This document shows positions 10,601 to 43,676 of a stretch of 64,000 nucleotides of DNA, in pieces. Positions within the stretch are counted from its first letter, which is position 1. Every line of letters begins with the position of its first letter. The translations under genes were made by a program, and so were the position numbers. Below the pieces are notes generated by a model. The model saw only the letters and a program-made list of their open reading frames with translations, was not told the origin of the DNA and did no database searches. Source of the DNA: a virus (taxonomy: Duplodnaviria; Heunggongvirae; Uroviricota; Caudoviricetes); the IMG/VR virus record IMGVR_UViG_2513237141_000003, positions 64,001 through 128,000 of that record. One strand, given 5' to 3'.

Positions 10601-10636
10601 CCACCCATCCATCCATTCCAATTTTGGAGAACGAAG

Positions 10637-13779: not shown

Positions 13780-13780
13780 C

Positions 13781-13936
13781 ATGAGGACGAAGAAGCTTAC
13801 CAGGGAAGAGGCACACGTGCAGGCGCGCGCCCGCGAGACCGCAGCAGCCAAAATCGAGCGCATCAACACCTACGCGCGGTCCTTCTCCGACATGAGTATC
13901 CGCGTGCTCTACCCTGACGCAGAAGGCGACGAGTGA
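13781..13936 (+). CDS. 51-aa hypothetical protein
   Basis: Read by hand (MRTKKLTREE...); fills the gap exactly and its stop overlaps the next GTG. Confidence 0.5.
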   Translation: MRTKKLTREEAHVQARARETAAAKIERINTYARSFSDMSIRVLYPDAEGDE

Positions 13937-14325
13937 GCGGGCTCTATCCGCGCACGGTCGAGATCCACCGCCCAAAGACGGTGGCCGCCGCATCCGGCGC
14001 GGCCGACACTATCGGCTTGACCGGATATTCCGGCATGACCGTCGATACGAGCTCGTCCGATCCGCAAGGAGAGACCGTGCTCTTCACCGGGGTGCCGGCG
14101 AGCATTCAAGCCGCCGCCACGGGGCGCAAGCGCGACAGCGCGCTGCCGCAGGACGCCGTCTCCAATCCGACGTGGAATGTGTTCATCCCGGCCATGGCCG
14201 TTCCCAACGGCTCGATCCGCGACCGCGACATCATCATTGACGACGAGCAGTATCGCTACGAGGTCGGCCAGGCCTATTGGAATATGCTCGGCTACAAGTG
14301 CATGTGTATTCGTCTGGAGGCGTGA
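13933..14325 (+). CDS. Head closure / stopper protein
   Basis: 130 aa; IRDRDIIIDDEQYRYEV motif; neck-region position. Confidence 0.72.
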   Translation: MSGLYPRTVEIHRPKTVAAASGAADTIGLTGYSGMTVDTSSSDPQGETVLFTGVPASIQAAATGRKRDSALPQDAVSNPTWNVFIPAMAVPNGSIRDRDIIIDDEQYRYEVGQAYWNMLGYKCMCIRLEA

Positions 14326-28353: not shown

Positions 28354-29114
28354 GCATAACCGGCAGCTCGTCCAATATCTCCGAACGCGTTTTTCGGGTC
28401 CTTCCCAAGGGGTGGTTCAAGTGGGCCGCACCGATCCGCAATGCGATCGTCGGCGGTCTCTCGGATGCCGCTTCATGGTGCTATGGCCTGATCGGCTACG
28501 CACGCGCGCAGACGCGCCTTTCGACCGCGTACGGCGTCTGGCTCGACGTCTGGGCGTTCGACTTTCTCGGGCGCTACCTCGTCAGAAACGGCGCGCCCGA
28601 TGCCGCCTTCCGGGCGCTGATCAAGGCGACAGTTCTGCAAGAACGGGTCACCCGCAAGGGCATGATCAACGCTATCACGGCCCTGACCGGTAAGGCGCCG
28701 ATCATCTTCGAACCATGGAATACTTACGACACTGGCGGATATTCGAACGCCAAGGCCGGTCAGGTATGTGGCCAATTCGGCTACGGCGTCGGCCAGGGCG
28801 GCTACGGCAGCATGGTGCTGCCAGCGCAGACCTTCATTCAGGTTGACCCAGGCGTCGGCGCCGGCATTCCAGATGTCGGCGGATACGGCACGGGCATCAT
28901 GGGCTACGGCGTCGGCGCGTCCGAATATGCCGGACCAACCATCGAAGAGTCCGGCGTCACGCCGGCAATGATCTACGACCTCATCAACAAGACCAAGCCG
29001 ACCGGCTCCACCTGCTGGGTGCTGATCTCGAGCATCTCACAGGGCAGCCTGATCATGTCCGAAGGCGGCGCCAACATAACTGCCGATAATGGCTCTCAAC
29101 TCATTGCAGGGTGA
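28350..29114 (+). CDS. Baseplate wedge protein (gpI-like)
   Basis: ATG 28350; QTRLSTAYGVWLDVWAFDFLG; Gly/Tyr-rich loops. Confidence 0.82.
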   Translation: MSITGSSSNISERVFRVLPKGWFKWAAPIRNAIVGGLSDAASWCYGLIGYARAQTRLSTAYGVWLDVWAFDFLGRYLVRNGAPDAAFRALIKATVLQERVTRKGMINAITALTGKAPIIFEPWNTYDTGGYSNAKAGQVCGQFGYGVGQGGYGSMVLPAQTFIQVDPGVGAGIPDVGGYGTGIMGYGVGASEYAGPTIEESGVTPAMIYDLINKTKPTGSTCWVLISSISQGSLIMSEGGANITADNGSQLIAG

Positions 29115-29116: not shown

Positions 29117-30283
29117 ATGCTGAAAATCTCGCGACTCTCGATGCTGCTTGCCGCTGTTTTCTTTGGCGCGTCCGCGCCCGCGCTCGCACAGACCACGGAA
29201 ACCTACACAGCCTACATTCTCGGCTTGCAGTCCGTCGGCGCGCTCGTCGGCAACGAGCGCATCGGAGCGGTGCAGGGTGGCACGTCGAAAGCGACATCTC
29301 CGCAACAGATCCTCGGCATGATCAACGGGGACTGCTCCTTCTCTGCATCCATCATCTGCACCAAGACCAACGGCGTTGCGTTTGCGCCGTCGGCGACGAT
29401 CAATGCTCTCAACGCCGGAAACATCAATGCAGGCGTGCTCGGGTCCACCTATGGCGGTGCGGGCACCGTCAACGGCGCACTCAAGGGCGACGGCACCGGC
29501 AACGTCTCGAAGGCGGGGTGCAGCGATCTAGCGGGAGTAGCTCCGTCCTGCGGGACTGACGCGACCAACGCCAGCAATATCAACACCGGCTTTCTCAATT
29601 TGTCACGGCTTGCCGCTCCACTCACGAGCCCAACCGTCAGCGGCAACACATCCCAGCTTGCAACGGTCGCGACGGGGACCAAGACGGCCAATCATGCCGC
29701 AACGTGGGATGTGAACGGCAACATCCAGGATGGTGGCGTGTCGTCCGGCACGGTCACCGAGCAGAAGAACACGGCTGGCGCTGGTCTTGTAACGTCCGGC
29801 AACTGCGATAACACCAGCACCAACGCATCGAGTCCTTGCCAGTTTGCTGTAACGGCCGGACAGGTCCCAGGCACGGCGACAAATGACAATGCCAGTTCTG
29901 GCAATGTTGGGGAGATCATCCAGTGCAACAACACCGTGAGCGGCATGAGCTCTGGTGTTCCATTCAACTTCTGCTCGATCGTCTTGACGCCCGGCGATTG
30001 GGACGTCTCCGGTCTCATGATGATGACGGGCTCACCGTGGACGGTGCAGGTCGTTGAGTTTGGCATCAGCACAACGTCTCTCACCATGCCGTCCACTACA
30101 GGCACGCTGGCGGCCTTCGCTGGTCCGTTCGTGCAATATTACAATGTATCACTGGCGATTACGCCTTATCGCATCACCGTCGCTACTAGCACCACCACCA
30201 CGATTTACGCCGTCGGCGACGTGACGTGGAACGCTGGCGGCGGAAGCATGGCTGCCCGCATCGAGGCGCGCCGTGTGAGGTGA
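29117..30283 (+). CDS. Signal-peptide-bearing fibre-like protein, 8 Cys
   Basis: MLKISRLSMLLAAVFFGASAPALA-Q signal; N-terminal fibre motif LVGNERIGAVQGGTSKATSPQQI; C-terminal LTPGDWDVSG...ARRVR domain. Confidence 0.75.
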   Translation: MLKISRLSMLLAAVFFGASAPALAQTTETYTAYILGLQSVGALVGNERIGAVQGGTSKATSPQQILGMINGDCSFSASIICTKTNGVAFAPSATINALNAGNINAGVLGSTYGGAGTVNGALKGDGTGNVSKAGCSDLAGVAPSCGTDATNASNINTGFLNLSRLAAPLTSPTVSGNTSQLATVATGTKTANHAATWDVNGNIQDGGVSSGTVTEQKNTAGAGLVTSGNCDNTSTNASSPCQFAVTAGQVPGTATNDNASSGNVGEIIQCNNTVSGMSSGVPFNFCSIVLTPGDWDVSGLMMMTGSPWTVQVVEFGISTTSLTMPSTTGTLAAFAGPFVQYYNVSLAITPYRITVATSTTTTIYAVGDVTWNAGGGSMAARIEARRVR

Positions 30284-30348
30284 GCCAGACCTTCTTGATG
30301 CACGCGCCTAAGACAGTCTGACGCCAACTACCCGCCAATCACATCAGC

Positions 30349-30374
30349 AAACCCGCCCTCGAGGCGGGTTTTTT
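30349..30374 (+). terminator. Intrinsic terminator-like hairpin
   Basis: AAACCCGCC-ctcga-GGCGGGTTT then TTT. Confidence 0.72.
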
Positions 30375-30397
30375 GTTGTCCAAAGGAAACAGCCTTC

Positions 30398-32452
30398 ATG
30401 GATCGCGTCATCGTTTATCCCGGTGCCCTCCCGCAGGATACCGACCTCCTCAACACCAACCTGTTCGCGCTCATCAATGGCGGCTTCAAGAACTCCGCCA
30501 TCTTCGGAACGTCGAACGCGGTGTCGGGTCTTGCCTGCACACCGACGGCGCCGGCATCTCTGCAGGTCAATGTCGGCGTCGGCTCGATCTTCGAGATGGA
30601 TGAGATCGACGCGTCCGCATACGGCAGCCTTGGCAGCAACACCCAGAACATCATGAAGCAGGGCATTCTGCCGACCGCGCAGACCCTGACCCTCACGCCT
30701 CCCGGCACGACAGGCTTTTCACAGGTCTATCTCGTCCAAGCAGCGCTTGAGGATATCGACGCCGGCGCAATGGTGCTGAGCTATTATAACTCGGCCAATC
30801 CCTTAAAGCCGTTTTCCGGCCCCAACAACTCCGGCTCGTCCAACTACACGATCCGCACCTGCCGCTGCGTGATCCAGCTGAAGGCCGGCGTGCCCGCCAC
30901 CACCGGAACGCAGGTCGCTCCGTCGGCAGATGCCGGGTGGGTCGGTCTCTACACCATCACGATCGCCAACGCCACCACGCAGATCACCTCCGGCATGATC
31001 GCGCAGCTTGCAAGCGCGCCGTTCTTCCGGACCTTGCCGCAGGTGCCGTATGACGTCCAGCAGGGCTACTACGTCTATGGTGGCACCGATACGGGTACGG
31101 CCAACAACTATGTCGTCACCTTCCAGGCCGGTCAGCCGATCCCGGCGGGCTACACCACCGGCATGGAGGTCGAGTTCAAGGCGCTGAACACCTCGACCGG
31201 CTCGTCTCAGGTCAATGTGCAGGGACTTGGCAATGTCACCATTCGCCGCGCCAACGGCGTGGCGACCGCTGCGAATGACATCACGTCCGGCCAGATCGTT
31301 CGCCTCAAGTATGACGGCACCTTTTTCCAGATCCAGAACTACACCGGCTCCGGTGCCAACACCAACACCTCCACCGTCGTCGACATCCCTTATGTCGCAG
31401 ACTCCGGCACGCAGAACGCGATCGTTGCGACCTTCAGCCCGTCAATCGGCTCGCTTACCGATGGCATATATGTCTCGGTCAAACTCGCCAATGCGATCAC
31501 CGGTGCGGCGACGTTGAACGCGAACGGCCTCGGCGCAAAGCCTGTGGTTCTAGGTGACGGCACCAACCCGCCCTACAACGTGTTTGTCGCCAACATGGAT
31601 GTCCTCTTCGTCTATTCGACGGCGATGGCTTCATGGCAGATTGCCAACACGTCCGCGGGCATGTTCTATCGCCGGCCGACGTCGAATTATAATATCTACG
31701 TCAACACCTCGACCGGAAGCGACACGCTCTACGATGGCACATCGGCCACCGTCGGGACCGGGACCTCTGGACCGGTCAAGACGATCAGCAAGGCGATACT
31801 GATCGCTTTCGGCTACGCACCGAGCCAGTTCAGCATCACCATTCAGGTAGCGAACGGCACCTATAGCGAGAACGTGCAGACACCGGGCTACGCCGGGCCG
31901 AACGTCATCATCCAGGGCGCTTCCACAGCGGGTGTCATCATCAACGGCGGCAACAACACGGCCGTGGATGTCGGTGGACCAAACACGCTCACCGTCAACA
32001 ACGTCACCGTGCAGACCTCTGGCGCAAATGCCAATGGCTTCTCCGCCACCAACGGCGCGACGTTGACTACGAACAACACGGCGAGCAATGGCGTAGGTGG
32101 CGCCGTGTTTGCCGGTTATCAGGGCGCCACGATCAACCCAGGCAACCACACATTCAACGGCAGCTGCGCGACGTGCTTTGCCGGCTACTTCGGCGGCTTC
32201 TGCAACATCGCCCAGTTCACCTATACGTTCTCGACGCCGATCTCCGTGATCGACGGTACCGTTCTCGCCTATGGCGGGCAGGTCGAAGTCAGCAATGGAA
32301 CGCCGCCGTCGTTCGTCAACGCGAGCTACGTCAACGGCCAGAAGTTTCAGTCGCAGCTCAATGGCCTGATCACCTGCTACACGCTGGGCCTGAACTTCCT
32401 GCCCGGAACGCAGCCGGGCATCCTCACGTTCGGCGGCCAGTATCTGCCGTAA
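30398..32452 (+). CDS. Main tail fibre / receptor-binding protein (C-terminal beta-helix-like)
   Basis: N-terminal MDRVIVYPGALPQDTD baseplate anchor; GTDTGTANNY and ADSGTQNA repeats; IYVNTSTGSD...PVKTISKAI pectin-lyase-like start; no signal peptide. Confidence 0.85.
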   Translation: MDRVIVYPGALPQDTDLLNTNLFALINGGFKNSAIFGTSNAVSGLACTPTAPASLQVNVGVGSIFEMDEIDASAYGSLGSNTQNIMKQGILPTAQTLTLTPPGTTGFSQVYLVQAALEDIDAGAMVLSYYNSANPLKPFSGPNNSGSSNYTIRTCRCVIQLKAGVPATTGTQVAPSADAGWVGLYTITIANATTQITSGMIAQLASAPFFRTLPQVPYDVQQGYYVYGGTDTGTANNYVVTFQAGQPIPAGYTTGMEVEFKALNTSTGSSQVNVQGLGNVTIRRANGVATAANDITSGQIVRLKYDGTFFQIQNYTGSGANTNTSTVVDIPYVADSGTQNAIVATFSPSIGSLTDGIYVSVKLANAITGAATLNANGLGAKPVVLGDGTNPPYNVFVANMDVLFVYSTAMASWQIANTSAGMFYRRPTSNYNIYVNTSTGSDTLYDGTSATVGTGTSGPVKTISKAILIAFGYAPSQFSITIQVANGTYSENVQTPGYAGPNVIIQGASTAGVIINGGNNTAVDVGGPNTLTVNNVTVQTSGANANGFSATNGATLTTNNTASNGVGGAVFAGYQGATINPGNHTFNGSCATCFAGYFGGFCNIAQFTYTFSTPISVIDGTVLAYGGQVEVSNGTPPSFVNASYVNGQKFQSQLNGLITCYTLGLNFLPGTQPGILTFGGQYLP

Positions 32453-32462
32453 CCACCCACGA

Positions 32463-32483
32463 GGCCGCCTTCGGGCGGCTTTT
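32463..32483 (+). terminator. Terminator between the fibre and endolysin genes
   Basis: GGCCGCC-TTCG-GGCGGCT then TTT. Confidence 0.65.
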
Positions 32484-32498
32484 CATTTGGAGCATCGC

Positions 32499-33134
32499 AT
32501 GTTCGACTCCGCGAGGTTCGAAGCCGCGCTGATGCAGCTATGGCCGCACGGCGACGACAAGATCCCGGGCCTGCGTCCCGCCATGGTGTCGCAGGCACCG
32601 GCGCTCTTTGCCAAGTACGGTCTCGTGACGCCGATGGCGATCGCCAACTTCATGGGAGAGTGCACGGAGGAGTGCGGCGGCGGCATCGAGGTCGAGGAGA
32701 ACCTCAACTATCGGGCAAGCGTGCTGTGCTCGCAGTGGCCGCGCCACTTCACGGCGGCGCAGGCGCTCGCCATGCAGCACCACCCGCAGCTGATCGCCAA
32801 TCAGGCCTACAACGGCCGCATGGGCAACCGTATCGGCACCGACGACGGCTGGAGTTATCGCGGCCGCGGCCCATCGCAGACCACCGGGCGAGATGCCTAC
32901 GCGCAGCTTGGTCAGCTGATGGGGCTCGATCTCGTCACCCATCCCGAGCTGATCAACGCGCCCGAGCATTTCCTGGAGGCCGGGCTGATCGACTTCGTCA
33001 CCATCTGCAAGTGCCTGCCTTACGCGGAGCGGGACGACGAGGTGAACGAGACGCGTCACCTCAACGGAGGGCTGATCGGCCTGCAGCAGCGGCAGGCCTC
33101 TATCGGGCTCTGGAAACATGCACTCGGAGCGTGA
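32499..33134 (+). CDS. Endolysin, glycoside hydrolase family 19
   Basis: EENLNY, IANQAYNGRMGN, DGWSYRGRG.SQTTGRDAY, NGG.IGL..R motifs. Confidence 0.9.
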   Translation: MFDSARFEAALMQLWPHGDDKIPGLRPAMVSQAPALFAKYGLVTPMAIANFMGECTEECGGGIEVEENLNYRASVLCSQWPRHFTAAQALAMQHHPQLIANQAYNGRMGNRIGTDDGWSYRGRGPSQTTGRDAYAQLGQLMGLDLVTHPELINAPEHFLEAGLIDFVTICKCLPYAERDDEVNETRHLNGGLIGLQQRQASIGLWKHALGA

Positions 33135-33148
33135 TCACTGTGACCATC

Positions 33149-33343
33149 ATGACACAATCAATCGTCAAAGCTGCGCTCGACCGAGCTTTCGATGAGCATA
33201 TTGGGAAAATCTTTTCCGTCCTCGTCCAGAACGTCATCGCGAACGATCACGAAGCTCTCGATCACTTCGCCAATGGAGTGGAGGCCGGACTGGCCGCGCA
33301 TGCGGACGCATCGGCCCTCATTGACAAGCTGGTGAAAGCATGA
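33149..33343 (+). CDS. Small helical hypothetical protein in the lysis region
   Basis: 64 aa; ATGA overlap with the lipase gene. Confidence 0.55.
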   Translation: MTQSIVKAALDRAFDEHIGKIFSVLVQNVIANDHEALDHFANGVEAGLAAHADASALIDKLVKA

Positions 33344-34014
33344 CGCCGACCGCGGGCGATCTCGTCAAGCTCTGCGCCCAGATATATCAGCCGAACGCCG
33401 CCGTTTCCGGCTTCGATTATTTCGATGCCGGCATGGACGACGGCGTCTGCTGGGCCATCAAGCGCCTCGATGGCTGCGACGTTGTCGTCTTCCGCGGCTC
33501 CGTGACGATGCAGGACTGGGCGCGGGACATCCTGGCGCTGGCGCTGCCGAGTCGCATTGGCCACGTCCACACCGGCTTCTACGCTGGTATGGAGCATATG
33601 TGGTCGGACTGCCAGAAGATGGTCACCCAGCCGGTCGCGGTGACGGGCCACTCCTTGGGTGCGGCCCGTGCCGACGTGATGGCAGCGATGATGAGCACCG
33701 ACGGGCAAGACCCGGTCTTGCGTGTGGTGTTCGGTGAGCCGAAGCCCGGCCTAATTGATTTCACCTCGCGCATCGCCCGCATCCCCGGCGGTAGCTACCG
33801 CAACGGCGACGGCTTTCACCACGATCTCATCACGGACGTCCCCTTCAGTTTCCCACCGGAAGAGTATGTACGCCCGACGCCGATCATCCGGGTGTGCGCC
33901 GCGCCGCCGGCGGACGATCGTTGGGGCGCGTTTTCCTGGCACCACATCGAACTTTACGAGGCGGCGATCGCGGCCGCTGAGACGAAAGCTGCTGATCCCC
34001 AGCGGCTCAACTGA
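33340..34014 (+). CDS. Class-3 lipase (alpha/beta hydrolase)
   Basis: VVFRGS...DW, VHTGF, nucleophile elbow TGHSLGAA, FGEPKPG, DLITDVP, C-terminal WHH. Confidence 0.85.
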   Translation: MTPTAGDLVKLCAQIYQPNAAVSGFDYFDAGMDDGVCWAIKRLDGCDVVVFRGSVTMQDWARDILALALPSRIGHVHTGFYAGMEHMWSDCQKMVTQPVAVTGHSLGAARADVMAAMMSTDGQDPVLRVVFGEPKPGLIDFTSRIARIPGGSYRNGDGFHHDLITDVPFSFPPEEYVRPTPIIRVCAAPPADDRWGAFSWHHIELYEAAIAAAETKAADPQRLN

Positions 34015-34036
34015 GAGACCAAGGAGACCAATCCCC

Positions 34037-34978
34037 ATGAAGCGTTTTCTGTTCGCCTTCGGCCTGTGGACGAACTTCCTGTCCCTGTTCGCGCTGGGCA
34101 CGCTCAAGCTGACCGGCGTAGCGCCGGACTGGGTCCCCGTGATCAAGGACTGGGCTTTCAACCTCGTCGTCATCAACACCATGATCATGACGGCGGTGCA
34201 GGGCTATCCCGCGCTCCCCGACATCAAGCTGCCGGACGGCATCAAGAAGGCTTTGCCGGCGGTATTGATTGTGGTGATCTCGCTGGTTGGCTTGGCGAGC
34301 ACCGTCCGTGCGGCGGACCTCCCCACCAAGGCCAAGCTCTCCAACCCTTTTGCGCAGCCTTACGACCTGACCAGGTGCGGGGCCTATTTCGGCTTCAACG
34401 CCATCGGCTCGACCTCCAGCGTTGCGGGAAATGTGCAGCCCGGCACGCAGGTGGTGCAGGGCGGTCTCGGTGGCACGGTCGGCTACGGCTGTCCGATCAA
34501 CGCCCAGAACGGCTCATTCTGGTTCGTCGAGGCGATGGCGGACATCACCAACATCAACGGCGCCACCAACGGCCTGTCGCTCTCTGGTCCCGCATCCTTC
34601 ACCGAACGTTTTGGCGCCGGTACGCCGCTCAACAGCGTGATCGGATCGATCCTGCCGGCAGGCTCGGCCTCGCCGGCGGTCCCGAGCCTGCCGTTGCTGC
34701 CCACCGGCATCACATCCGGCCCCGGCGCACCGTACGCCTTTGTCGCCCTGCATCAGGACGATATCTCGCTGTCCAACGGCATCTCACAGAACCGAGAGTG
34801 GCTGTTGTCTTGGGGCATCGGTCTCGGCCTTCGCTACCGCCTCTCCAACGGAGTCGTGGCCGACACCTTCGCTGAATACAAGGCCGCGACCCAATCGATC
34901 TGCGTCGGCGCGATCGGTAACGCTGCCTGCATCAAACCAGATCAAGGTGCCCGCGTCGGCATCAGCTTCCTTTACTAA
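34037..34978 (+). CDS. Fusion of an N-terminal TM (holin-like) domain with a rhizobial outer-membrane beta-barrel protein
   Basis: RBS AAGGAG; two hydrophobic segments, then KK-ALPAVLIVVISLVGLASTVRA-ADLPTKA (signal plus the typical rhizobial OMP start); C-terminal GARVGISFLY beta-signal. Confidence 0.7.
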   Translation: MKRFLFAFGLWTNFLSLFALGTLKLTGVAPDWVPVIKDWAFNLVVINTMIMTAVQGYPALPDIKLPDGIKKALPAVLIVVISLVGLASTVRAADLPTKAKLSNPFAQPYDLTRCGAYFGFNAIGSTSSVAGNVQPGTQVVQGGLGGTVGYGCPINAQNGSFWFVEAMADITNINGATNGLSLSGPASFTERFGAGTPLNSVIGSILPAGSASPAVPSLPLLPTGITSGPGAPYAFVALHQDDISLSNGISQNREWLLSWGIGLGLRYRLSNGVVADTFAEYKAATQSICVGAIGNAACIKPDQGARVGISFLY

Positions 34979-35043
34979 CGCCCGCTCAATCCGGCGGGCG
35001 GGTGCACGTCGGCTGCCCGCCGATGCTTCCAAAAGGAAAGACC

Positions 35044-35238
35044 ATGCGGATGCACCACGATTACATCGTCAACCTCCCGCTCTCCGTCGTCCTGATGACG
35101 TCGGAGAGCTGGCTCAAGCTGTTTGTGGATGGATCGTGGTTCTTCGGCACGCTTCTCCCGTACGTCGGCTTCGCAGTCGGCGCCCTGCAGCTGTTCTTCC
35201 TGGCTCGCAAGTTTTGGAACTGGCTGAAGAACGACTAA
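35044..35238 (+). CDS. Putative holin with Met-Arg-Met dual start
   Basis: 64 aa, hydrophobic segments, basic C-terminus ARKFWNWLKND; ATG CGG ATG after RBS AAGGA. Confidence 0.62.
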   Translation: MRMHHDYIVNLPLSVVLMTSESWLKLFVDGSWFFGTLLPYVGFAVGALQLFFLARKFWNWLKND

Positions 35239-35254
35239 CCCCCAAGAGGCTTAA

Positions 35255-35914
35255 ATGGCTCCCCATGTACTCATCGTCGGCGCGGACAAGGGAGGCGTTG
35301 GCAAGACCACCGTTTCCCGCACCTTCGTCGACTACTTCGAGACCCGCGGCATCACGGTTCGCTCCTTCGATACCGAGCACCCGGAAGGCGTCCTGGCGCG
35401 CTTCCATCCCACCAAGACCAAGATCATCAATCTCGAAGATCCGGCCGACCAGATGCTGGTGTTCGACAATCTGAACGCCGCGCAGGTGACGCTGATCGAC
35501 ATTCGCGCAGGGCTTCTCTCCAAGACGCTGGCGACCCTGACCGAGGTCGGCCTTCTCGGGGGCGCGCAGGCCGACCGCATGCGGACCTCCGTGGTCCATG
35601 TCATCGGCTCGAACAAGGCCTCTTTCGACGAGATCGACAAGACGGCGTCGGCCCTGGCCGGCGCAAGACACCACATCCTGCTCAACCACATCAACAAGTC
35701 GAAGTTTGCAGGCCTGCCGGACTCGGTGCGCGATCCGATCATCGTCGGCCAGCTCAACGAGATGGCAGCCGACACCGTCGATCGCCTCAGCATGGGCTTC
35801 AAGGCCTTCTGGAACGACGAGGCGAACCAGTCCGGCGTGCTGCGCGGCTACGTCGATGCGTGGCTCAACCGCACCTTCAAGGCCTACGACGACCACGCGT
35901 TCAACGTCCTCTAG
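35255..35914 (+). CDS. ParA/MinD-like P-loop ATPase
   Basis: Deviant Walker A GADKGGVGKTT, FDTE, Walker B TLIDIRAG. Confidence 0.82.
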   Translation: MAPHVLIVGADKGGVGKTTVSRTFVDYFETRGITVRSFDTEHPEGVLARFHPTKTKIINLEDPADQMLVFDNLNAAQVTLIDIRAGLLSKTLATLTEVGLLGGAQADRMRTSVVHVIGSNKASFDEIDKTASALAGARHHILLNHINKSKFAGLPDSVRDPIIVGQLNEMAADTVDRLSMGFKAFWNDEANQSGVLRGYVDAWLNRTFKAYDDHAFNVL

Positions 35915-36000
35915 ATCCGACCTCTCCGCATAGTTCTCGAGCCGCCATGGCAAGCGCCGTGGCGGCTTTGTCATGTCAAGTCCTGCGTGAAGGAGATCCG

Positions 36001-37236
36001 ATGCCGGCGAATCCTCTTTCTGACGAAACGCTCCGAGCAACGGTTCAGGCCTATTACGACAACAACAAAAGCTGGATGGGTGCAGCAAAGACCCTCGGCA
36101 TCGCTGACCGCTCCGTCGGAGACCGCCTCAAGCAGGCGGCCAAGCGCGGCCTGATGCTCAACGGCGGCGGCCCGGAGGCTATGCCGGGCTTCGAGGTCAC
36201 CAAGGTCGCCACGGACGGTGAGGGCAACCCGACCCACATCACCCAGCAGCAAGAGCCGGGCGCCGTCTTCGAGATGCCGAAGACGCACTTCCTCGGCAAG
36301 ATGACCGTCAATCGCGACGCCTCTGGCCGCATCATTCAAGACTGGATCAGGGCCGAGGTCGATGTCCAGCAGCGCGAGGCGGCCATCCAGGCCGTCGTCG
36401 CGGGCTTCTGCAGCGAGCTGCCGCGCGCCGAGCCGGTCAACACCCACATCGTCGGCAACGCCGACCTCGTCAACCAATATACGATCACGGACTACCACTT
36501 TGGGCTCTTGTCATGGAGGCCTGAGACCGGCGCGGACTGGGATCTGAAGATCGCCGAGAAGCTCTGGATGGACTGGTTCGCGGCCGCCGTGCGGCTCGCG
36601 CCAGACGCTCACACCGCGATCCTGGCCCAGCTCGGCGACCTCCTGCACTTCGACAGCCTCTCGGCTGTCACGCCCACCAGCGGCCACGTACTGGACGCCG
36701 ACAGCCGCTTCGCCAAGGTGGTCAGGGTGGTCATTCGCTGCATGCGATATGCGGTGCGGCTTCTGCTCGAGAAACACGAGAACGTTCACCTCATCATGGC
36801 GGACGCCAACCACGATCCGGCATCCGAGATCTGGTTGCGCGAGATGTTCGCAGCCCACTACGAGGACGAACCGCGGGTCTCGATCGACCTGTCGCCCGGG
36901 ACCTACTACGCCTTCGAGTGGGGCCTGGTCTCACTGTTCTATCACCACGGCCACAAGAAGAAGATCAAGCAGGTGGACGATGTGTTCGTCGCCACCCATC
37001 GCGAGCTCTACGGCAAGACCAGGTTCTCCTACGGGCACACCGGCCACCTGCACTCGGACGAGCTTTTTTCATCGAACCTGATGAAGGTGGAGCGCCACGA
37101 GACGCTGGCGGCGGCCTCTTCCTACGAGGCCAATGGCGGCTGGCGGAGCGGCCGCTCGTCCAAGGTCATCACCTATCACAAGAACTACGGCGAGGTCGGT
37201 CGCATCACGCTCACGCCCGAGATGGTGATGTCGTGA
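36001..37236 (+). CDS. HTH plus calcineurin-like metallophosphoesterase
   Basis: TDYHFG, LGDLLHFD, ANHD, HHGH, HTGHLH motifs; start ATG 36001 (RBS AAGGAG). Confidence 0.85.
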   Translation: MPANPLSDETLRATVQAYYDNNKSWMGAAKTLGIADRSVGDRLKQAAKRGLMLNGGGPEAMPGFEVTKVATDGEGNPTHITQQQEPGAVFEMPKTHFLGKMTVNRDASGRIIQDWIRAEVDVQQREAAIQAVVAGFCSELPRAEPVNTHIVGNADLVNQYTITDYHFGLLSWRPETGADWDLKIAEKLWMDWFAAAVRLAPDAHTAILAQLGDLLHFDSLSAVTPTSGHVLDADSRFAKVVRVVIRCMRYAVRLLLEKHENVHLIMADANHDPASEIWLREMFAAHYEDEPRVSIDLSPGTYYAFEWGLVSLFYHHGHKKKIKQVDDVFVATHRELYGKTRFSYGHTGHLHSDELFSSNLMKVERHETLAAASSYEANGGWRSGRSSKVITYHKNYGEVGRITLTPEMVMS

Positions 37237-37592
37237 CGAGGACCGCGCGCACGGTTGAAGCCTGCATTGCGGACCTTCCCAAGACCATCAAGATCGGGGC
37301 GTACGACTGGCAGGTCGTGGCGCTGGATGATGCCTCGGAGAATTACGGCCAGGCCGACTTCGACACCAGCGCCATCCGCATCTGGCCGAAGAACATCGCC
37401 ACCGCCGAAAAGGTCGTCGGGATCTTTCTGCACGAGTGCTACCACGTCATGTTCGACAATCATGGCCTCGGGCAACTCAAGCGCGACAAGGAAGATCGCG
37501 AAGAGCAGATCGTACTCGCCTTCGAGGCCGGCATGGTCTCTCTGCTCCGCGACAACCCCAAGCTCCTCATGTGGATGAAGAAGTACCTATGA
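37233..37592 (+). CDS. Small zincin-like metalloprotein (HExxH)
   Basis: FLHECYH motif; start GTG 37233 overlaps the upstream stop. Confidence 0.7.
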   Translation: MTRTARTVEACIADLPKTIKIGAYDWQVVALDDASENYGQADFDTSAIRIWPKNIATAEKVVGIFLHECYHVMFDNHGLGQLKRDKEDREEQIVLAFEAGMVSLLRDNPKLLMWMKKYL

Positions 37593-38029
37593 GCTATTTC
37601 GTGCGCGAAATCGACGGCATGGAGTGCTCCGACATCCTGCACACCATGAACGCGTTCGATCCGTCGTTCCCGGCGCTTGCGAGCAAGCACTTCTCGCATG
37701 GATATTGGTGGATCGCCCAGGAGCACGACACCAACATTGCGGTCGCCTTCGCGGCCCTGGTGCCGTTCTTCGGTCCAAAGGACGGTGTAGGCTACTTCAA
37801 ACGAGCCTACGTGCTGCCGGAGTACCGCGGGCAGGGGCTGCAACTCTCGTTCATGCGCCTGCGCGAGGACAAGGCGCGCCAGCTGGGCTGGCGCATGCTG
37901 GTCTCCGAGTGCAGCGGCGACAACGTCCATTCCGCCAGCAACTTCAGCAAGGCTGGATTTTCCGAGTTCATTCCGGAGCAACCGTGGGGCGCCCCGGGAT
38001 CGATCTACTTCGCCAAGATCCTTTTCTAG
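37589..38029 (+). CDS. GNAT acetyltransferase
   Basis: RAYVLPEYRGQGLQ acetyl-CoA motif A; NVHSASNFSKAGF motif B. Confidence 0.85.
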   Translation: MSYFVREIDGMECSDILHTMNAFDPSFPALASKHFSHGYWWIAQEHDTNIAVAFAALVPFFGPKDGVGYFKRAYVLPEYRGQGLQLSFMRLREDKARQLGWRMLVSECSGDNVHSASNFSKAGFSEFIPEQPWGAPGSIYFAKILF

Positions 38030-38062
38030 CGACCCACTCCAAAACAAAAGGGGCTGACCACC

Positions 38063-38977
38063 ATGCGTCTCCAACGCGTGATCCTTCCGACTTTGCTTCT
38101 CATCGCCGCTGTATTCGTCGGAAGTCGGGCGTTCGCCGACTATCAGATCAAGGACGGCACCGGCACTCTGCAGACCGTCCTATCCTTCGTGTGTCAGACC
38201 ACAAAGATATGCCCGGCGCAGGTGCTGATCGACTCGTCCGGTTCAGAGAAGGCGACGGCGTCGAACCCGCTGCGCACCGACCCAACCGGGACGACCGCGC
38301 AGCCTGTCTCCGGCGCTTCATCGAATGCGTCTTCGGCGGTGACGACATCATCCGCGAATCTCCCTGCGATCGCGTACCTCTATGGCTTCAACGGCACGAC
38401 CTGGGACCAGATCCAGGTTGATGGGTCGAAGAACCTGAAGGTCAACTGCGTTACCGGGTGCGGCGCGGGTGGCGGTGGCGCGGTCACGGTCGCCAACGGC
38501 GCCGACACGGTGGAAGGCACGATCACCACCGCGCACGGCTGCTCTGTGGCTGGCTATACGGTTATCGGCTGCCTTGGGCAGATTGACGATGACATCAAGG
38601 GACCTCTTCCGACCGGTACAAACTATGCCGCTCAATTCGGTCTGTGGGCGTCGGTCTCGAGCTACGTGAACGGCACGACTGCCGCCATGACCGCAACGAC
38701 CAGCACGCAGGTCATCGCTGCCGTCGCGTCGAAAAGCATCTACGTGACCGAGGTCTCCTGCGGCAACAGCAGCTCGACCGGCACCTTCGTGAACATTCAA
38801 GACGGCAGCGGCGGCGCGACGCTTAGGACGCTGACTTGCGGTCCAACCTTTGGCGGTCATGTCGAGCAGGCTGGCGGCACTCCGATGTTCCACACCACCT
38901 CGGGCAACGGCCTCTATGCGGTGGATGTCACGACCGGCGCGAACGTAATCGTCAACGCTTCTGGTTGGGCTCAGTAA
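38063..38977 (+). CDS. Signal-peptide-bearing fibre/spike-like protein, 8 Cys
   Basis: MRLQRVILPTLLLIAAVFVGSRAFA-D; Thr/Gly-rich shaft; C-terminal beta-sandwich VIAAVASKSIYVTEVSCGN. Confidence 0.78.
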   Translation: MRLQRVILPTLLLIAAVFVGSRAFADYQIKDGTGTLQTVLSFVCQTTKICPAQVLIDSSGSEKATASNPLRTDPTGTTAQPVSGASSNASSAVTTSSANLPAIAYLYGFNGTTWDQIQVDGSKNLKVNCVTGCGAGGGGAVTVANGADTVEGTITTAHGCSVAGYTVIGCLGQIDDDIKGPLPTGTNYAAQFGLWASVSSYVNGTTAAMTATTSTQVIAAVASKSIYVTEVSCGNSSSTGTFVNIQDGSGGATLRTLTCGPTFGGHVEQAGGTPMFHTTSGNGLYAVDVTTGANVIVNASGWAQ

Positions 38978-38987
38978 GGAGACGCGA

Positions 38988-39185
38988 ATGGCTTTGCATC
39001 GATCTCTACAAAAGGCCGTCCGCGTAGCCCTCGCGCTTTGGCTGGCCATATCCCCTGCAGGTGCCACGAACATGCTCCTCACGGGGGTGGGGAGTTCGAG
39101 TGGGGGAGCAACCACCAACTGCATTCTCGTCCAGACCGGCTCCAAACTTCTCGCCAACACTGGCTCATGCCTGCTTTTCCAATGA
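38988..39185 (+). CDS. Small signal-peptide protein, 2 Cys
   Basis: MALHRSLQKAVRVALALWLAISPAGA-T; mature part TNMLLTGVG...CILVQTGSKLLANTGSCLLFQ; RBS AAGGAG. Confidence 0.65.
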   Translation: MALHRSLQKAVRVALALWLAISPAGATNMLLTGVGSSSGGATTNCILVQTGSKLLANTGSCLLFQ

Positions 39186-39193
39186 GGTTCGCA

Positions 39194-39991
39194 ATGAAGA
39201 AGCTCCTACTGATCGCGTTGCTTTTGCTTGCGCCAGCAACCGCGTACGCTGATCAGACCATTAACACGCTCGGCGCCGGCAGCGCGGTCAGCAACACCGA
39301 CCTGTTCCCAGCCTATCAAGGCGCCAATCCTGCGACCACGCCAACCGCAGCCCAGGTCAAGGCATACTCGAATATTTCGCCAGGCTATGTTGCCAGCAAT
39401 TGGTATGTGCCAATCAACGAAGCTGCGTCCTCTATCGGCCAAGGTGTTACGTCCAGCACAATCTATTGCAAATTCGGAATCATTAATCAGAAGGTCACGA
39501 TCAGTGCGCTTGCGATCGGGATCAATACGGCCGGGTCAAGCAATGTGCAGCTTGCGGTCTATTCGTCGGTAAATGGCAAACCCGGGTCGCTACTCAGCAA
39601 CACAGCCAACATCGCCAACAATGTGACTGGCGCAGTGAGCGGGGCGCTCGGTGCCAACAAACAGGTCGGTCCCGGAGGGGCCAACGGCGACGCCGCTTTA
39701 TGGTTCTGCGCGAACACCAACGATAGCACGATGACCCCGGTCATAAGCGGCTTCAATGCGTTGAGCGGGGCGGCCTATGTTGGAAGCTCAACTTTGTCAG
39801 ACATCTTGAACGGTACTGGTGGGACCAGCATAGGCGGCGTCTCTTGCTCTGGAGCAAATTGCAACGGGGGCTCCAGCACCTTCAACACGTGGCCCGCCTC
39901 TCTGGCCGGCTCGACCTGGACAATCATCAATTCCAACACGACAGGAAATCCCGTCCCGATCGTCGGGTTTAAAGTGCAGTCCGTTCCGTAA
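39194..39991 (+). CDS. Signal-peptide-bearing fibre-like protein, 4 Cys
   Basis: MKKLLLIALLLLAPATAYA-D; N-terminal fibre motif INTLGAGSAVSNTDLFPAYQGANPATTPTAAQV; NVQLAVYSSVNGKPGSLL beta domain. Confidence 0.78.
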   Translation: MKKLLLIALLLLAPATAYADQTINTLGAGSAVSNTDLFPAYQGANPATTPTAAQVKAYSNISPGYVASNWYVPINEAASSIGQGVTSSTIYCKFGIINQKVTISALAIGINTAGSSNVQLAVYSSVNGKPGSLLSNTANIANNVTGAVSGALGANKQVGPGGANGDAALWFCANTNDSTMTPVISGFNALSGAAYVGSSTLSDILNGTGGTSIGGVSCSGANCNGGSSTFNTWPASLAGSTWTIINSNTTGNPVPIVGFKVQSVP

Positions 39992-39996
39992 TTGGG

Positions 39997-42789
39997 GTGC
40001 TATCCGTGAAAAGATTTTTAGCCGTTCTACTCTCGGCGCTACTGATTTCTGAGCCCAGTCATGCCTGGCCCATTAAGGCGTCGGCAGCAGGCGTGGCGCC
40101 TAATGGCGCCACCCTGAATATCGGCGGCGGGGATCTCGCGCTCGGAAATTTCGTCGACATCATGCATGTGATGCAGGCGGGGTTTTCGGGAGGGGCCACG
40201 CCAAATTCGGCCGGGCTGGACTCGAACGGCTATCCGACCAAAAGCTTTTCGGGGACCATATCTTTTACAGAGCCGCTGACCGGTGGCAGCGGGTTCTACA
40301 ATGTCCCTTATGTCGCGGTTGTGCCGGCCGGGACCAAGCTTGCATTCACCAGCACGGGAGGCACGCAAGCTAGCAGTTGTTCCGTGCTTTCCGGGACGGC
40401 GGGCAGCTACACCGGATGCCTCGGCGGAAATGTCACCATCACCTTCGACGGCACTGGCGCTGCTGCAGTTCAGTTCACCCCGACAGGGCAGTTCACGATC
40501 AACTTCAGCGGGGCATCGTCATACGGCGCTGCAGGAACCGCCAATCTCGCCATTGTCAGGGCGACGGACTACGCGAACTATCTTGCTTATGGCAACACCG
40601 ATGCGCGCGGGATCTTCACGCCGGAATATCTGTCCCTTCAAGCGGGTACAAACGCCAAAAACATCAGGCCCATGGGTTGGGTTGATAGTGGCGGAAACAA
40701 TCTCTCAAGCGATACCGCGTGGAATTATCGGACTCCAGTAAGCGCACTGAGCTGGAACACTGGTGTTTTCCCGACCACTGTTTGGTCGAGCAGCATTACC
40801 TATGCTGCGACTGGCAACGGAAGCTGCACGACAGTTGGAGGTTCACAGGAAGTCTACACGGCTAGTGCCACGACCGACACGGCCGGCGCTCCGGTTGACG
40901 GATCGGTAATCCAAGGGGTCATCCCGACAACCAACACGACGGCGCAGCCCTATCTGTGCGTCGGTGGCGCACAATATCCAGTTGTCACTCCAGACGGTTT
41001 GACCACCGGCGCTGGAATTGTTTCGTCCGGTCAGGGCACTTTTATCTTCGACGGGATTACGCATCGTTGGCTGAACATTGCCTACATCGTCGGCGGCAGC
41101 AATCCTGATGGCGGCCTGACGGCTACGCTACCCATTGAAGCTCAGGTCCTCCTTGCGAATTACCTGAATCGTAATTTGTGGATCACCATCCCCGCGATGG
41201 CCAATTCCAATTACGTGACTCAGCAGGCGACCGCTGCGCTCAATCTCAAGACGGGTCTCTACGGCATCTTTGAGTACAGCAACGAGATCTGGAATTTTTC
41301 CTTTCCGCAGACCCAGTGGGCAAACCAGCGAGGGCTGGCTCTGGGCTTCCCGCAGGCCAACAACGAGCCGGCGAGCGGCTGGTACGGCCTGCGCATCGCG
41401 CAGTATCTCGGAAGCACCGTTCCATCGGTGTGGGCCGGGCGCACTTCCAATCTGCGCCGTTACCTTGGCTATCAGGCTTTCGGCGATCCCGCGGCGACCA
41501 AAACCTACCGGATGAAGGGCGCCGACCTTGCCAACAACGTCAGCTACTCAAACCCGGTTTCAATCTCCGTAGCCTCGCCCGCCGTTCTCTCTGGCTGGTT
41601 CGGGCACGGCTTGCAGTCCGGATGGCCAGTCGTTATGTCCACGACAGGGTCTCTGCCGACGGGCTTGATTGCCGGAACGACGTATTACGTTCTCAACCCA
41701 AATTCAAACAACGGCACGCTCCAGCTTTCGGCCACGCCAGGTGGCGCGGCGATCAACACAAGCGGGACGCAATCGGGCACGCAGACCGCGACCTACACCA
41801 ATCCATACTATGCCTCGATCATTGGCGTCGCCTACAACGCGAAGCCAAATCGGCCTGTCGATTTTATCGAGAGCAAGGGCTATGCGCCGTACACCGCCGG
41901 CACCAACTTCTCCGACCAGGGCGTAAACGGTGGCACCGCTGTCACCAGCATCAATGCCCCGTTCCTGCAGACGCTGGCCACGGCCCTCAACTCCAACCCG
42001 AACGATCCGACTTCGATAGCATCGCTTGACAACGACTTCCGGCAGGGCACAGCCTCGACGCTGACCTATAACTCGGGCACCTCGACGACCTTTAGCTGCC
42101 CGACCGGGACCACGTTCTCGACCTCTGCCGCGCATGGGTTTTCGAACACCAATCCCGGCAATAACAACATGGTCGCCATCTTCACGGCGACCGGGGGAAC
42201 TGTCTGCAATGGTCTGACTGCGGGGAAGGGCTATTGCTTTATCAACGTCACATCCACGACCTTCCAGATCGCCGCGTTCAATTCGGATGGGACGTGCGGC
42301 AGCACACCGATCGGTGTGTCGCCTGGCACTGGGACGACATCCGTTGGGCCAGCAAACGACACGACGCTCGCTGCATTGACCGCTCACATGTATCCGCAAT
42401 GGGAAGCCGTTGCGGCGGCCTTCGATAGCGACAGGCCGGCGGGGATGTCGGCGCTGCGTGTCGAGTGGTACGAGGGGGCTCCAGAGCCTTTGGCGCCTCC
42501 GGCTACGGGCGCGAACTCGTTAACCAGCGTCGGTGTGACGGTCGCCGGATCGGCGGCGACCGCAAACGCCGCCCTGCAGGCGGGATTGACCAGTTGGAAG
42601 AACAACGCTGACGCCAGCGCGTTGATCTTAGCCTACTACAACGCGTTCATGGCGCTGACCCACTCCAAGACGCCATCGCATCTCGTTCTGCCGGGTGGTG
42701 GTCAATATTCGCTGACATCTGGCACTCTCCCGACATCAGCGAAATATCAGCTCTACAACGGCTTTGCGTCGTTCGTGGGTGTGCCTTAA
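39997..42789 (+). CDS. Large signal-peptide protein with a clan GH-A-like TIM barrel and inserted beta domains, 8 Cys
   Basis: KRFLAVLLSALLISEPSHA-W; LWITIP, EYSNEIWN (acid/base), WYEG (nucleophile); two LPTGL..GTTYYV...LQLS-type inserts; start may be GTG 40006. Confidence 0.8.
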   Translation: MLSVKRFLAVLLSALLISEPSHAWPIKASAAGVAPNGATLNIGGGDLALGNFVDIMHVMQAGFSGGATPNSAGLDSNGYPTKSFSGTISFTEPLTGGSGFYNVPYVAVVPAGTKLAFTSTGGTQASSCSVLSGTAGSYTGCLGGNVTITFDGTGAAAVQFTPTGQFTINFSGASSYGAAGTANLAIVRATDYANYLAYGNTDARGIFTPEYLSLQAGTNAKNIRPMGWVDSGGNNLSSDTAWNYRTPVSALSWNTGVFPTTVWSSSITYAATGNGSCTTVGGSQEVYTASATTDTAGAPVDGSVIQGVIPTTNTTAQPYLCVGGAQYPVVTPDGLTTGAGIVSSGQGTFIFDGITHRWLNIAYIVGGSNPDGGLTATLPIEAQVLLANYLNRNLWITIPAMANSNYVTQQATAALNLKTGLYGIFEYSNEIWNFSFPQTQWANQRGLALGFPQANNEPASGWYGLRIAQYLGSTVPSVWAGRTSNLRRYLGYQAFGDPAATKTYRMKGADLANNVSYSNPVSISVASPAVLSGWFGHGLQSGWPVVMSTTGSLPTGLIAGTTYYVLNPNSNNGTLQLSATPGGAAINTSGTQSGTQTATYTNPYYASIIGVAYNAKPNRPVDFIESKGYAPYTAGTNFSDQGVNGGTAVTSINAPFLQTLATALNSNPNDPTSIASLDNDFRQGTASTLTYNSGTSTTFSCPTGTTFSTSAAHGFSNTNPGNNNMVAIFTATGGTVCNGLTAGKGYCFINVTSTTFQIAAFNSDGTCGSTPIGVSPGTGTTSVGPANDTTLAALTAHMYPQWEAVAAAFDSDRPAGMSALRVEWYEGAPEPLAPPATGANSLTSVGVTVAGSAATANAALQAGLTSWKNNADASALILAYYNAFMALTHSKTPSHLVLPGGGQYSLTSGTLPTSAKYQLYNGFASFVGVP

Positions 42790-43625
42790 CTCAGCACCCT
42801 CGCATGCACCCTGATCGAGTCGTATTTCGCACTGTTTGGGGCGAGCATCGTCCGAAGCAGCAGGGGCCATCCAGCGCGCACCAAGTTTAATTCGGCCCGC
42901 CATTTCGGCATAAACTGCCGAGTGTACCCAGTGTAAAAAACGTCTGTAACTTGCAATCCAGTTCTTTCGAGCAAAAGTCGAAGTGATCTTTCGGTAAAGA
43001 AAGAAAGATGGCGCGGGATATCTGTCCATGGCCATGCATCCTTGAACCAGCGAAAGCCAGTGGCGGCGTTATTTGGCACCTCGATAACAATGACGCCGTC
43101 GTTCGCGAGAATCGATTTTGCGTTTGTCAGGGCTCGAATTGGATCAATGCAGTGCTCTAAAACGTGAGACATGAGCACGACATCAAATTTGCCAACTGGC
43201 GGCAGGTGTTCTGCGGTGCCATCGTAGGTTGGACACACATCGTTTGCGATGTGGCGGGCACGTTGATCAGGCTCGATGCCAACAATGCTGTAGCCCGCGG
43301 ATCGCAATTTTCGGAGCAAATCGCCATTCCCGCAGCCGATATCGCAAGCTGTTTTGCCGGCGGGAAGTTCGCTCGGATCGAAATCTTTGCCGCCGTCCAA
43401 TTTGAACGCGCTGTGAATTAGCAGCCTTTCGAGAGGCGACGGCTTGCGCGACTCATCCTTCGCTATTGAGTGGGTATAGTAGGATGCCGGATAGAAGCTG
43501 GAAACCTGCTCTGGGGTGAAGTCTCCAGCCAGGCGACCGAATGAACATTGGTTGCACCAACGCAAATCGAAATGAGAAGTTTGAAATAGCCGATTGGTTT
43601 CGGCGTCGCAAATTAAGCAATTCAT
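42786..43625 (-). CDS. SAM-dependent methyltransferase with N-terminal CxxC pairs (glycan-modifying type; moron)
   Basis: CLIC...CNQC; CDIGCGNG motif I; FDVVLMSHVLEH; VIEVPN; more AT-rich than the flanking genes. Confidence 0.85.
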   Translation of the reverse strand: MNCLICDAETNRLFQTSHFDLRWCNQCSFGRLAGDFTPEQVSSFYPASYYTHSIAKDESRKPSPLERLLIHSAFKLDGGKDFDPSELPAGKTACDIGCGNGDLLRKLRSAGYSIVGIEPDQRARHIANDVCPTYDGTAEHLPPVGKFDVVLMSHVLEHCIDPIRALTNAKSILANDGVIVIEVPNNAATGFRWFKDAWPWTDIPRHLSFFTERSLRLLLERTGLQVTDVFYTGYTRQFMPKWRAELNLVRAGWPLLLRTMLAPNSAKYDSIRVHARVLS

Positions 43626-43647
43626 AAGTGCAAGACGACCTCTAGTT

Positions 43648-43676
43648 GTTATAAATGTCAGTGGGATTGAACACAA
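43648..43676 (-). promoter_or_regulatory. Putative sigma70 promoter of the methyltransferase moron
   Basis: On the - strand TTGTGT-N17-TATAAC, upstream of ATG 43625. Confidence 0.55.

Follow-up and report, generated by a model that had tools for sequence, protein, structure and literature searches.

Putative Sec-Exported, Disulfide-Patterned Fibre-Type Proteins Encoded by a Bradyrhizobium-Associated Myovirus-Type Prophage

Gene Arrangement and Predicted Signal Peptides

The DNA examined in this study, a stretch of 64,000 nucleotides covering positions 64,001 to 128,000 of IMG/VR record IMGVR_UViG_2513237141_000003 (the window), belonged to a GC-rich (~62%), myovirus-type prophage of a Bradyrhizobium-type soil bacterium. 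Five genes on its plus strand encoded proteins, designated P1 to P5, that were predicted to be exported by the Sec system and folded with disulfide bonds. P1 (29117–30283; 388 amino acids, aa), a candidate exported fibre with a signal peptide at residues 1–24 (29117–29188), was located between the gene for a gpI-like baseplate wedge protein (28350–29114, plus strand; 254 aa, no signal peptide), assigned by PHROG 26379 and baseplate PHROGs and with homologues carrying Pfam UCP028438, and the gene for the main tail fibre or spike (30398–32452, plus strand; 684 aa, no signal peptide, seven cysteines). The other four were clustered further downstream: P2 (38063–38977; 304 aa, signal peptide 1–25), a putatively exported modular protein; P3 (38988–39185; 65 aa, signal peptide 1–26), a predicted exported peptide of 39 aa when mature; P4 (39194–39991; 265 aa, signal peptide 1–19), a second candidate exported fibre; and P5 (39997–42789; 930 aa, signal peptide 1–23), a large protein also predicted to be exported. 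Pfam and PHROG scans of P1–P5 gave no match. The atlas neighbours of these protein families were approximately 90–100% viral, signal-bearing relatives matched tail-fibre PHROGs 11393, 972, and 18186 as well as Peptidase_S74, and the proteins are likely of the fibre type by these family matches.

Signal peptides were called by a crude rule that combined a charged N-terminus, an uncharged hydrophobic core, and a small-x-small cleavage site. All five N-termini contained one to three lysines or arginines followed by an uncharged hydrophobic core, with the best Kyte-Doolittle 10-mer scoring 2.4–3.5, and cleavage was predicted at ALA-Q after residue 24 (P1), AFA-D after residue 25 (P2), AGA-T after residue 26 (P3), AYA-D after residue 19 (P4), and SHA-W after residue 23 (P5). 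The same rule flagged 3 of the 41 other genes checked in the window, namely the tape measure, a 78-aa membrane protein, and a methyltransferase with a doubtful start. The signals recurred among homologues, being found in 31 of 48 relatives of P1 (where they were followed by the same N-domain), in 45 of 50 relatives of P4, and in most full-length relatives of P5, in which a Trp directly after the cleavage site was conserved. P2 had 1168 matches among 50%-identity representatives, and a signal was present in 128 of the best 150. A lipobox (L-x-x-C at the cleavage site) was absent from all five proteins. In the host genome, loci for DsbA-like thioredoxins numbered six and those for signal peptidase I three.

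Public gene calls of P2 (294 aa) and P5 (898 aa) began downstream of the starts used here, and the signal peptides were thereby lost. The longer open reading frames are considered correct because homologues of both proteins retained the upstream signal peptides; a Shine-Dalgarno-like AAGGGG was also found upstream of the long P2 start. These two starts, at 38063 and 39997, raise the possibility that automated annotation systematically hides a signal-bearing class of proteins through downstream starts.

Cysteine Parity and Pairing

The predicted mature parts of P1 to P5 contained 8, 8, 2, 4, and 8 cysteines, respectively, and none lay inside a signal peptide. A sequence-only reading of the window had proposed these five reading frames with their Sec-type N-termini and even cysteine counts, mostly in neighbouring pairs, a fibre-type N-terminal motif in two of them, a position between the wedge and main fibre genes for one, and a main fibre with no signal peptide and seven cysteines. 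All of this was borne out by the counts and homologue comparisons; the motif-bearing proteins were P1 and P4, and the protein between wedge and main fibre was P1.

Even parity extended well beyond the window. Of 215 homologues with a signal, 203 had an even mature cysteine count (binomial p 6e-46, a value that is overstated as the homologues are not independent, although the effect is nonetheless very large). Homologues with no signal comprised 43 with an even count, 22 with an odd count, and 8 with no cysteine, and many of these were truncated gene calls. No parity bias was present in the 41 other genes checked in the window (14 even, 16 odd, 11 with none). Neighbouring cysteines were also gained and lost together. 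The C73–C81 pair of P1 co-occurred in 21 of 21 cases, and both members of C230–C241 were present in 10 sequences and neither in 8, with no sequence holding a single one. The same held for paired columns in P2 (C129–C133 and C160–C170) and P5 (C128–C141 and C747–C767), while the four cysteines of P4, located in its C-terminal head, were nearly invariant. Signal-less relatives of P1 were ordinary-looking tail fibres with no or one cysteine. The joint pattern of predicted signal peptides and even cysteine counts is beyond chance. Export and oxidative folding outside the cytoplasm, as the earlier reading had it, gave the best account of conserved signals, paired cysteines, and fibre-type proteins, and we hold with good confidence that P1–P5 are exported and disulfide bonded.

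The opposite explanation, in which the hydrophobic N-termini would be mis-called starts or tethers to the cytoplasmic membrane, and the fibres of an ordinary kind that stay in the cytoplasm, drew on the downstream starts of the public P2 and P5 gene calls. It would leave unexplained the n-, h-, and c-regions and AxA sites kept in hundreds of homologues, a strong even-cysteine bias seen only with a signal, the Shine-Dalgarno-like site before the long P2 start, and the fibre motif that begins at the cleavage site (see below), and we judge it to have hardly any chance of being correct.

Architecture of the Five Proteins

P1 was built of the signal peptide, a conserved N-domain (comprising the fibre motif and a GDC-x7-C-TKTNG loop that was invariant), a set of shaft repeats, and a variable C-terminal head. 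The shaft repeats (TNASNI.SG.L, SGNTS, and WD..GN..DGG) were common to signal-less fibres. P4 ended in a beta-sandwich head that was present in many viral clusters; its longer relatives added Gly-rich shaft repeats, and one carried a Peptidase_S74 chaperone.

P2 comprised an N-module (ADY..G.G...F.C..TK.C), a middle module, and a C-terminal jelly-roll knob of 110 residues, which was modelled with a predicted local distance difference test (pLDDT) score of 96–98. The fold of the knob matched viral turret and cement proteins, XepA and YomS, C1q/TNF knobs, Ena pilins, and the tip of the Bd2133 fibre, at Z scores of 6.3–8.7, a range that is generic for jelly rolls and establishes the fold class and not the family. 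XepA of PBSX and YomS of SPbeta (PDB 6i56 and 6i5o; Z 7.8) are likewise encoded in prophage lysis cassettes, and the title of PDB entry 6i56 is "PBSX exported protein XepA". However, they differ in their Gram-positive host and in having neither the signal-plus-cysteine-pair pattern nor fibre modules, and the Z score is within the generic range. The Bd2133 tip (Z 6.3–6.6) belongs to the mosaic adhesive trimer (MAT) fibres of Bdellovibrio bacteriovorus, all 21 of which have a signal peptide (PMC10769870), providing a precedent for phage-type fibres that fold after Sec export. MAT fibres are phage-tail-fibre-like trimers, some with S74 chaperones, in which the signal is followed by a conserved N-domain (PMC10769870). 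They differ from P1–P5 in that they are chromosomal genes of a predator and are displayed on its own surface, and neither sequence similarity nor a tag-motif pair of the kind described below was shared.

P5 is probably a glycanase resembling clan GH-A (GH, glycoside hydrolase), with a split (beta/alpha)8 barrel and inserted beta domains, as judged from a structural model. Residues E426, N429, and E430 (EYSNEIWN, 426–433) and E826 (YEG, 825–827) were invariant in 14 homologues, and their assignment to barrel strands relied on a weak model (pLDDT 58); clan GH-A enzymes have an Asn-Glu acid/base motif after strand 4 and a nucleophile Glu after strand 7. In an all-against-all structure search with this model, (beta/alpha)8 glycosidases made up most of the top 50 rows (Z ≤7.8), and many of the matches were of clan GH-A (GH51, GH79, GH5, GH26, and GH39; Z ≤7.8). 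A Foldseek search of the PDB with the same weak model returned nothing below E 0.001, the best match being a GH51 at E 0.02; a PDB sequence search with the P5 profile gave no match; and a Pfam scan of P5 and 13 homologues at E up to 1 yielded no named GH family.

Residues 521–586 of P5 (41557–41754) formed a small beta domain, with a possible second copy near residues 715–775. This domain was shared with gp56 of phage phiLM21 (Sinorhizobium) and with Rhizobium phages RHph_N28_2 and TM3_3_3, where the proteins occupied the tail-tube position of rhizobial siphophages, and many fibres from metagenomes also carried it in their N-terminal portion. It is probably a decoration domain for glycan adhesion. 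A role as the virion-docking domain was rejected, as the domain lies in the C-terminal half of the tail-tube-position protein of phiLM21 and RHph_N28_2.

The glycanase-like fold and motif of P5, predicted from the model, suggested an alternative in which P5, and perhaps the whole P2–P5 set, serves as a secreted carbohydrate-active enzyme (CAZyme) with which the host could draw nutrients from soil polymers. CAZymes of soil prophages have been reported, with signal peptides on 5% of them (PMC13507307), and P5 would resemble these in being prophage borne, probably glycan cleaving, and signal bearing. It differs from them in that it matched no named CAZy or Pfam family, bears decoration domains of the virion type, and travels in a conserved four-gene cassette with predicted exported, fibre-like partners, within phage structural or lysis modules and coupled to late genes. 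An auxiliary metabolic function is therefore, in our view, very improbable.

The Tag and N-Terminal Motif Pair

The last ~22 residues of the wedge protein formed an "hLxxxxGx" repeat tag (SLIMSEGGA-NITADNGS-QLIAG) that was conserved across four related prophages. Mature P3 consisted of the same kind of tag repeats and nothing else (..ILVQTGS-KLLANTGS-CLLFQ). When six-frame reading frames of the window were searched with a regular expression for the tag, the wedge and P3 were the only real genes matched. The fibre N-motif was likewise restricted to P1 and P4 in the window, the main fibre having none, and each of the two genes was directly downstream of a tag gene (the wedge and P3, respectively).

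This adjacency recurred elsewhere. The upstream gene ended in a tag for 15 of 16 inspected motif-bearing fibre genes (two in the window, and one each at the loci that we labelled L017, L001, L002, L005, L009, L021, L026, L027, L007, L003, L010, and L024 and in the cultured Stenotrophomonas phage StenR_269), L029 being the sole exception, and the two P4-like genes with no motif (L008 and L023) had no tag upstream. In seven pairs the fibre had a signal but the tag protein had none, four of these pairs being those of the related prophages; both partners were predicted to be exported in six pairs, and neither had a signal in one (StenR_269). Among the seven mixed loci, one tag protein was the baseplate wedge and another matched "virion structural protein" PHROGs. 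Peptides like P3 preceded P4-like fibres in L005, L009, L021, L026, and L027. At L013, a 66-aa protein (9774–9974) ended in SLDFSNPDNSQYQP, which may represent a second kind of C-terminal tag.

The N-motif of the exported fibres started at the predicted cleavage site, in P4 at mature residue 1. Its invariant Gln was located a median of 24 residues past the cleavage site, as compared with 24–26 residues from Met1 in signal-less proteins; the distance was the same in the signal-less fibre P0064 and the StenR_269 tail fibre. Exported versions often gained a cysteine pair inside the motif (C-VQ.G...K-C). The predicted signal has been added ahead of a module that would need a free N-terminus. The tail fibre of Stenotrophomonas phage StenR_269 (WQZ00992.1) showed the form with no signal: it had the same N-motif (L.qLP.A...G.L..VQGG), an S74-type C-terminus like that of the P4-like gene in L005, and an upstream 107-aa protein (WQZ00993.1) ending in tag repeats (LRLTSEDG-YVLMLSGD-RIRLTNQG). 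It differs from the pairs of the window in that neither partner has a signal, the fibre is almost free of cysteine, and the motif runs from Met1. PDB sequence searches with the P1 profile and the StenR_269 proteins gave no informative match.

Distribution of P1 and of the P2–P5 Cassette

P1 occupied the position between a gpI-like gene and the main fibre gene, always with a signal, in this prophage, in L017, in L001 (Bradyrhizobium sp. PMVTL-01, the nearest named relative of P1), and in L002, a metagenome contig. By gene order, P1 is a core gene of these four related prophages. Its head differed between the two prophages of this genome (window and L017).

L017 (G000:C8:48500-68400), located on the same contig as the window and ~135 kilobases (kb) upstream of it, represented the tail module of a second related prophage. 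Its genes were arranged as J-like, gpI-like with tag, a P1 paralogue (9794–10837), an antisense HNH-like reading frame (10847–11512), and main fibre.

Fibres of contractile-tailed phages, such as gpH of phage P2, gp49 of Mu, and the R-pyocin fibre, attach to the gpJ/gpI wedge. P1 shared with these systems the order of Baseplate_J, gpI-like, and fibre genes, and a conserved N-terminal part combined with a variable C-terminal head. Unlike those fibres, which have no signal and are assembled in the cytoplasm, P1 has a conserved and presumably cleavable signal and four cysteine pairs, and its gene comes in addition to that of the main fibre, which it separates from gpI.

The remaining four genes showed a different distribution. 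P2–P5 were absent from the closest relatives, L001 and L002, and a search of 300 genomes from the host's family with P2 as the query returned no match. The order P2-P3-P4-P5 was repeated in full in L005 and L009 and partially in L007, L008, L011, L013, L021, L026, and L027, on contigs that were otherwise unrelated (myo-, podo-, and siphovirus-like). A narrow alignment search with P4 yielded four viral and six metagenome loci only. The four proteins measured 365, 73, 441 (S74), and 871 aa in L005, a viral contig of 65 kb, where a GH25 endolysin gene flanked them on one side and a holin-like gene paired with a lipoprotein gene on the other; in L009 they measured 161, 72, 409, and 1138 aa and were flanked by an SU10-type portal gene and a capsid gene. 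Runs of three to six consecutive signal-bearing, even-cysteine proteins were the rule at the cassette loci, and the large third partner varied in the manner of receptor-binding or depolymerase modules. Judged by this distribution, P2–P5 is an accessory, horizontally mobile cassette rather than a set of core virion genes.

That the cassette was shared by phages of different tail types also indicated that no specific virion site is needed, as would be expected if all five proteins, or P2–P5, were free agents that build up in the periplasm and are released at lysis as disulfide-stabilised lectins and a glycanase. By stripping or occupying exopolysaccharide or lipopolysaccharide, such agents would free progeny from debris and matrix, similar to the soluble depolymerase of plaque halos. 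The modelled likeness of P5 to a clan GH-A glycanase, the dispensability of the cassette in relatives, the position of the cassette beside lysis genes in L005, L008, and L021, the provision of a tag off the virion by P3, and the signal peptides on ~5% of prophage CAZymes (PMC13507307) would all fit this explanation. It leaves unexplained the fixed place of P1 between wedge and fibre in four prophages, the occurrence of the residue-1 motif of ordinary fibres exactly at the mature N-terminus, and the seven loci in which a signal-less tag protein stands beside an exported fibre, and we regard it as rather unlikely.

The sequence-only reading had also placed the five genes in a late operon and had offered a secreted surface or adhesion system of the lysogen as one of their possible roles. 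The first claim was upheld in part: P2–P5 did share the strand of the tail genes, with intervals of 33, 10, 8, and 5 bp upstream of P2, P3, P4, and P5, respectively, but they were not beside those genes and instead followed a block of lysis, ParA-like, helix-turn-helix (HTH), SprT-like, and GNAT genes. The second gained no support, given the tight coupling to the late strand and the lack of a promoter-like site upstream of P1 or P2.

The same two observations counted against lysogenic conversion or superinfection exclusion, in which the proteins would be made in the lysogen and, acting in the periplasm or at the surface, would mask or destroy the phage receptor. Llp of T5 and Cor are small exported lipoproteins of this kind, encoded beside receptor-binding genes, that block the receptor and are made early or in the lysogen. 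P1–P5 differ from them in having no lipobox, in being encoded on the late strand, and in their fibre-like build, which includes a long-fibre architecture and, in relatives, an S74 chaperone. Most homologues were found in apparently lytic phage contigs, and the absence of P2 from the 300 host-family genomes was also unexpected under such a role. In its favour were the presence of exported phage proteins beside fibre genes and a polysaccharide-type methyltransferase gene (42786–43676, minus strand) convergent with P5, the stop codons of the two overlapping. A comparable pairing was found in L007, where a P5-like gene was followed by antisense Methyltransf_23 and hexapeptide acetyltransferase genes (12745–14264) and an Acyl_transf_3 gene was located upstream. 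The P5-like gene and antisense Methyltransf_23 in both places suggest a linked glycan-modifying moron. Overall, we consider conversion improbable.

Proposed Assembly Route

Tailed phages are described in textbooks as assembling wholly in the reducing cytoplasm. Filamentous phages export virion proteins (g3p and g8p) by Sec and YidC, and g3p becomes disulfide bonded in the periplasm before joining the particle, but these inoviruses are extruded at the membrane, and to our knowledge no periplasmic export step of the filamentous-coat type is known for tailed phages. We propose that P1–P5 would be made late, exported by Sec, and cut by signal peptidase I. In the periplasm they would then fold with disulfide bonds in a DsbA-dependent manner and probably form trimers, at the same time as heads and tails are put together in the cytoplasm.

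P1 would act as a baseplate fibre. Cleavage of its signal would expose, at the new N-terminus, the docking motif that signal-less fibres carry at residue 1, and its likely partner would be the C-terminal repeat tag of the cytoplasmic gpI-like wedge encoded upstream. The two would meet only once holin lesions join the cytoplasm and the periplasm, and a holin forming large holes is expected because the endolysin is soluble. Docking may occur inside the still-closed outer membrane or after release; a closed interval would keep fibres and particles concentrated. The other four proteins would be exported together: P2 as a knob-ended, lectin-like protein, P3 as a free tag peptide, P4 as a motif-bearing fibre paired with P3, which could cap or organise it in the periplasm, and P5 as a GH-A-like glycanase. 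P2–P5 would end up as decorations of the virion, or else work alongside it on the polysaccharide of the host surface.

Docking of P1 onto the virion was inferred because its position beside the wedge was conserved, its predicted mature N-terminus aligned with residue 1 of signal-less fibres, and the upstream wedge ended in a tag of the kind found ahead of such fibres at 15 of 16 loci; even so, we see the case for it as evenly balanced. Sequence comparison lends good support to the signal peptides, cysteine pairing, viral fibre kinship, synteny, and tag-motif adjacency, from which export, disulfides, docking, and timing were deduced. The proposal as a whole, comprising Sec-exported, disulfide-folded fibres and glycanase with P1 docking onto the gpI tag after holin opening, could in our judgement equally well prove right or wrong, and several points weighed against it. 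The crude signal-peptide rule has ~7% false positives (3 of 41 other genes checked in the window). Gene adjacency is the single line of evidence that would link tag to motif, P3 shows that the tag can occur off the virion, and a PDB sequence search with the N-motif profile found no solved structure containing it. Dilution after lysis would make docking inefficient unless it took place inside the still-closed outer membrane. P2–P5 were missing in the nearest relatives, and P2 also in the 300 family genomes, which indicated that the particle does not need them. A terminator-like hairpin (30349–30371) parted P1 from the main fibre gene. A tblastn search of 50,697 cultured-phage records left P1 and P4 unmatched, gave P2 one weak partial match, and matched P5 through the 65-residue decoration domain only, and no cultured phage with a homologue of these proteins was found there.

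A variant with assembly in two compartments would assign P3 the part of a "surrogate tag" that holds the fibres in the periplasm by filling their docking motif, from which they would swap to the gpI tag after holin opening, with the outer membrane still closed. The tag and motif would then form a portable plug and socket, and the swap could be compared, by analogy, to the donor-strand exchange of chaperone-usher pili. We offer this variant tentatively, as a possible but somewhat doubtful refinement.

Tail fibres and depolymerases are themselves of a known kind; it is the proposed maturation route that is undescribed, and no description of Sec-exported tailed-phage fibres, or of the repeat tag, was found in the literature. 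Should export and oxidation of receptor-binding fibres prove routine, a large part of the soil virome, most of it uncultured, would be recognising its hosts via proteins that standard annotation pipelines leave unnamed and start at the wrong codon, as for two of the five here. Predicting or engineering host range would then require that the signal peptide, DsbA, and lysis timing be taken into account. The stage after the holin acts and before the outer membrane ruptures would itself count as a step of assembly. With more than 1100 representative clusters, the P2 family is not a rarity, and the tag-motif pair would provide a simple, testable socket for fibre attachment.

Other Features of the Window

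Pfam and PHROG searches of the window named a sheath-like protein, an amidase-containing tail protein, a gpV-like spike, Baseplate_J (27106–28353), and the gpI-like wedge. After the wedge, the genes were arranged as P1, main fibre, GH19-like endolysin, class-3 lipase, membrane protein, ParA-like ATPase, HTH, SprT-like, and GNAT, followed by P2–P5, the convergent methyltransferase, and leftward early genes. No obvious spanin was found near the GH19 endolysin and lipase of this prophage. In L005 (12715–13414) and L021 (3643–4050), the exported cassette was located inside a lysis module with GH25 or lysozyme, a holin-like protein, and a lipoprotein with a spanin-like lipobox.

The hairpin downstream of P1 was on the plus strand, in the 114 bp that separate P1 from the main fibre gene, and consisted of a 9-bp stem with 6 GC followed by a T-run. 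It was the sole convincing strong hairpin in the region from 26 to 44.5 kb. Its presence implies attenuation or a separate transcript for the fibre, lysis, and cassette genes, and it may set the ratio of P1 to the main fibre.

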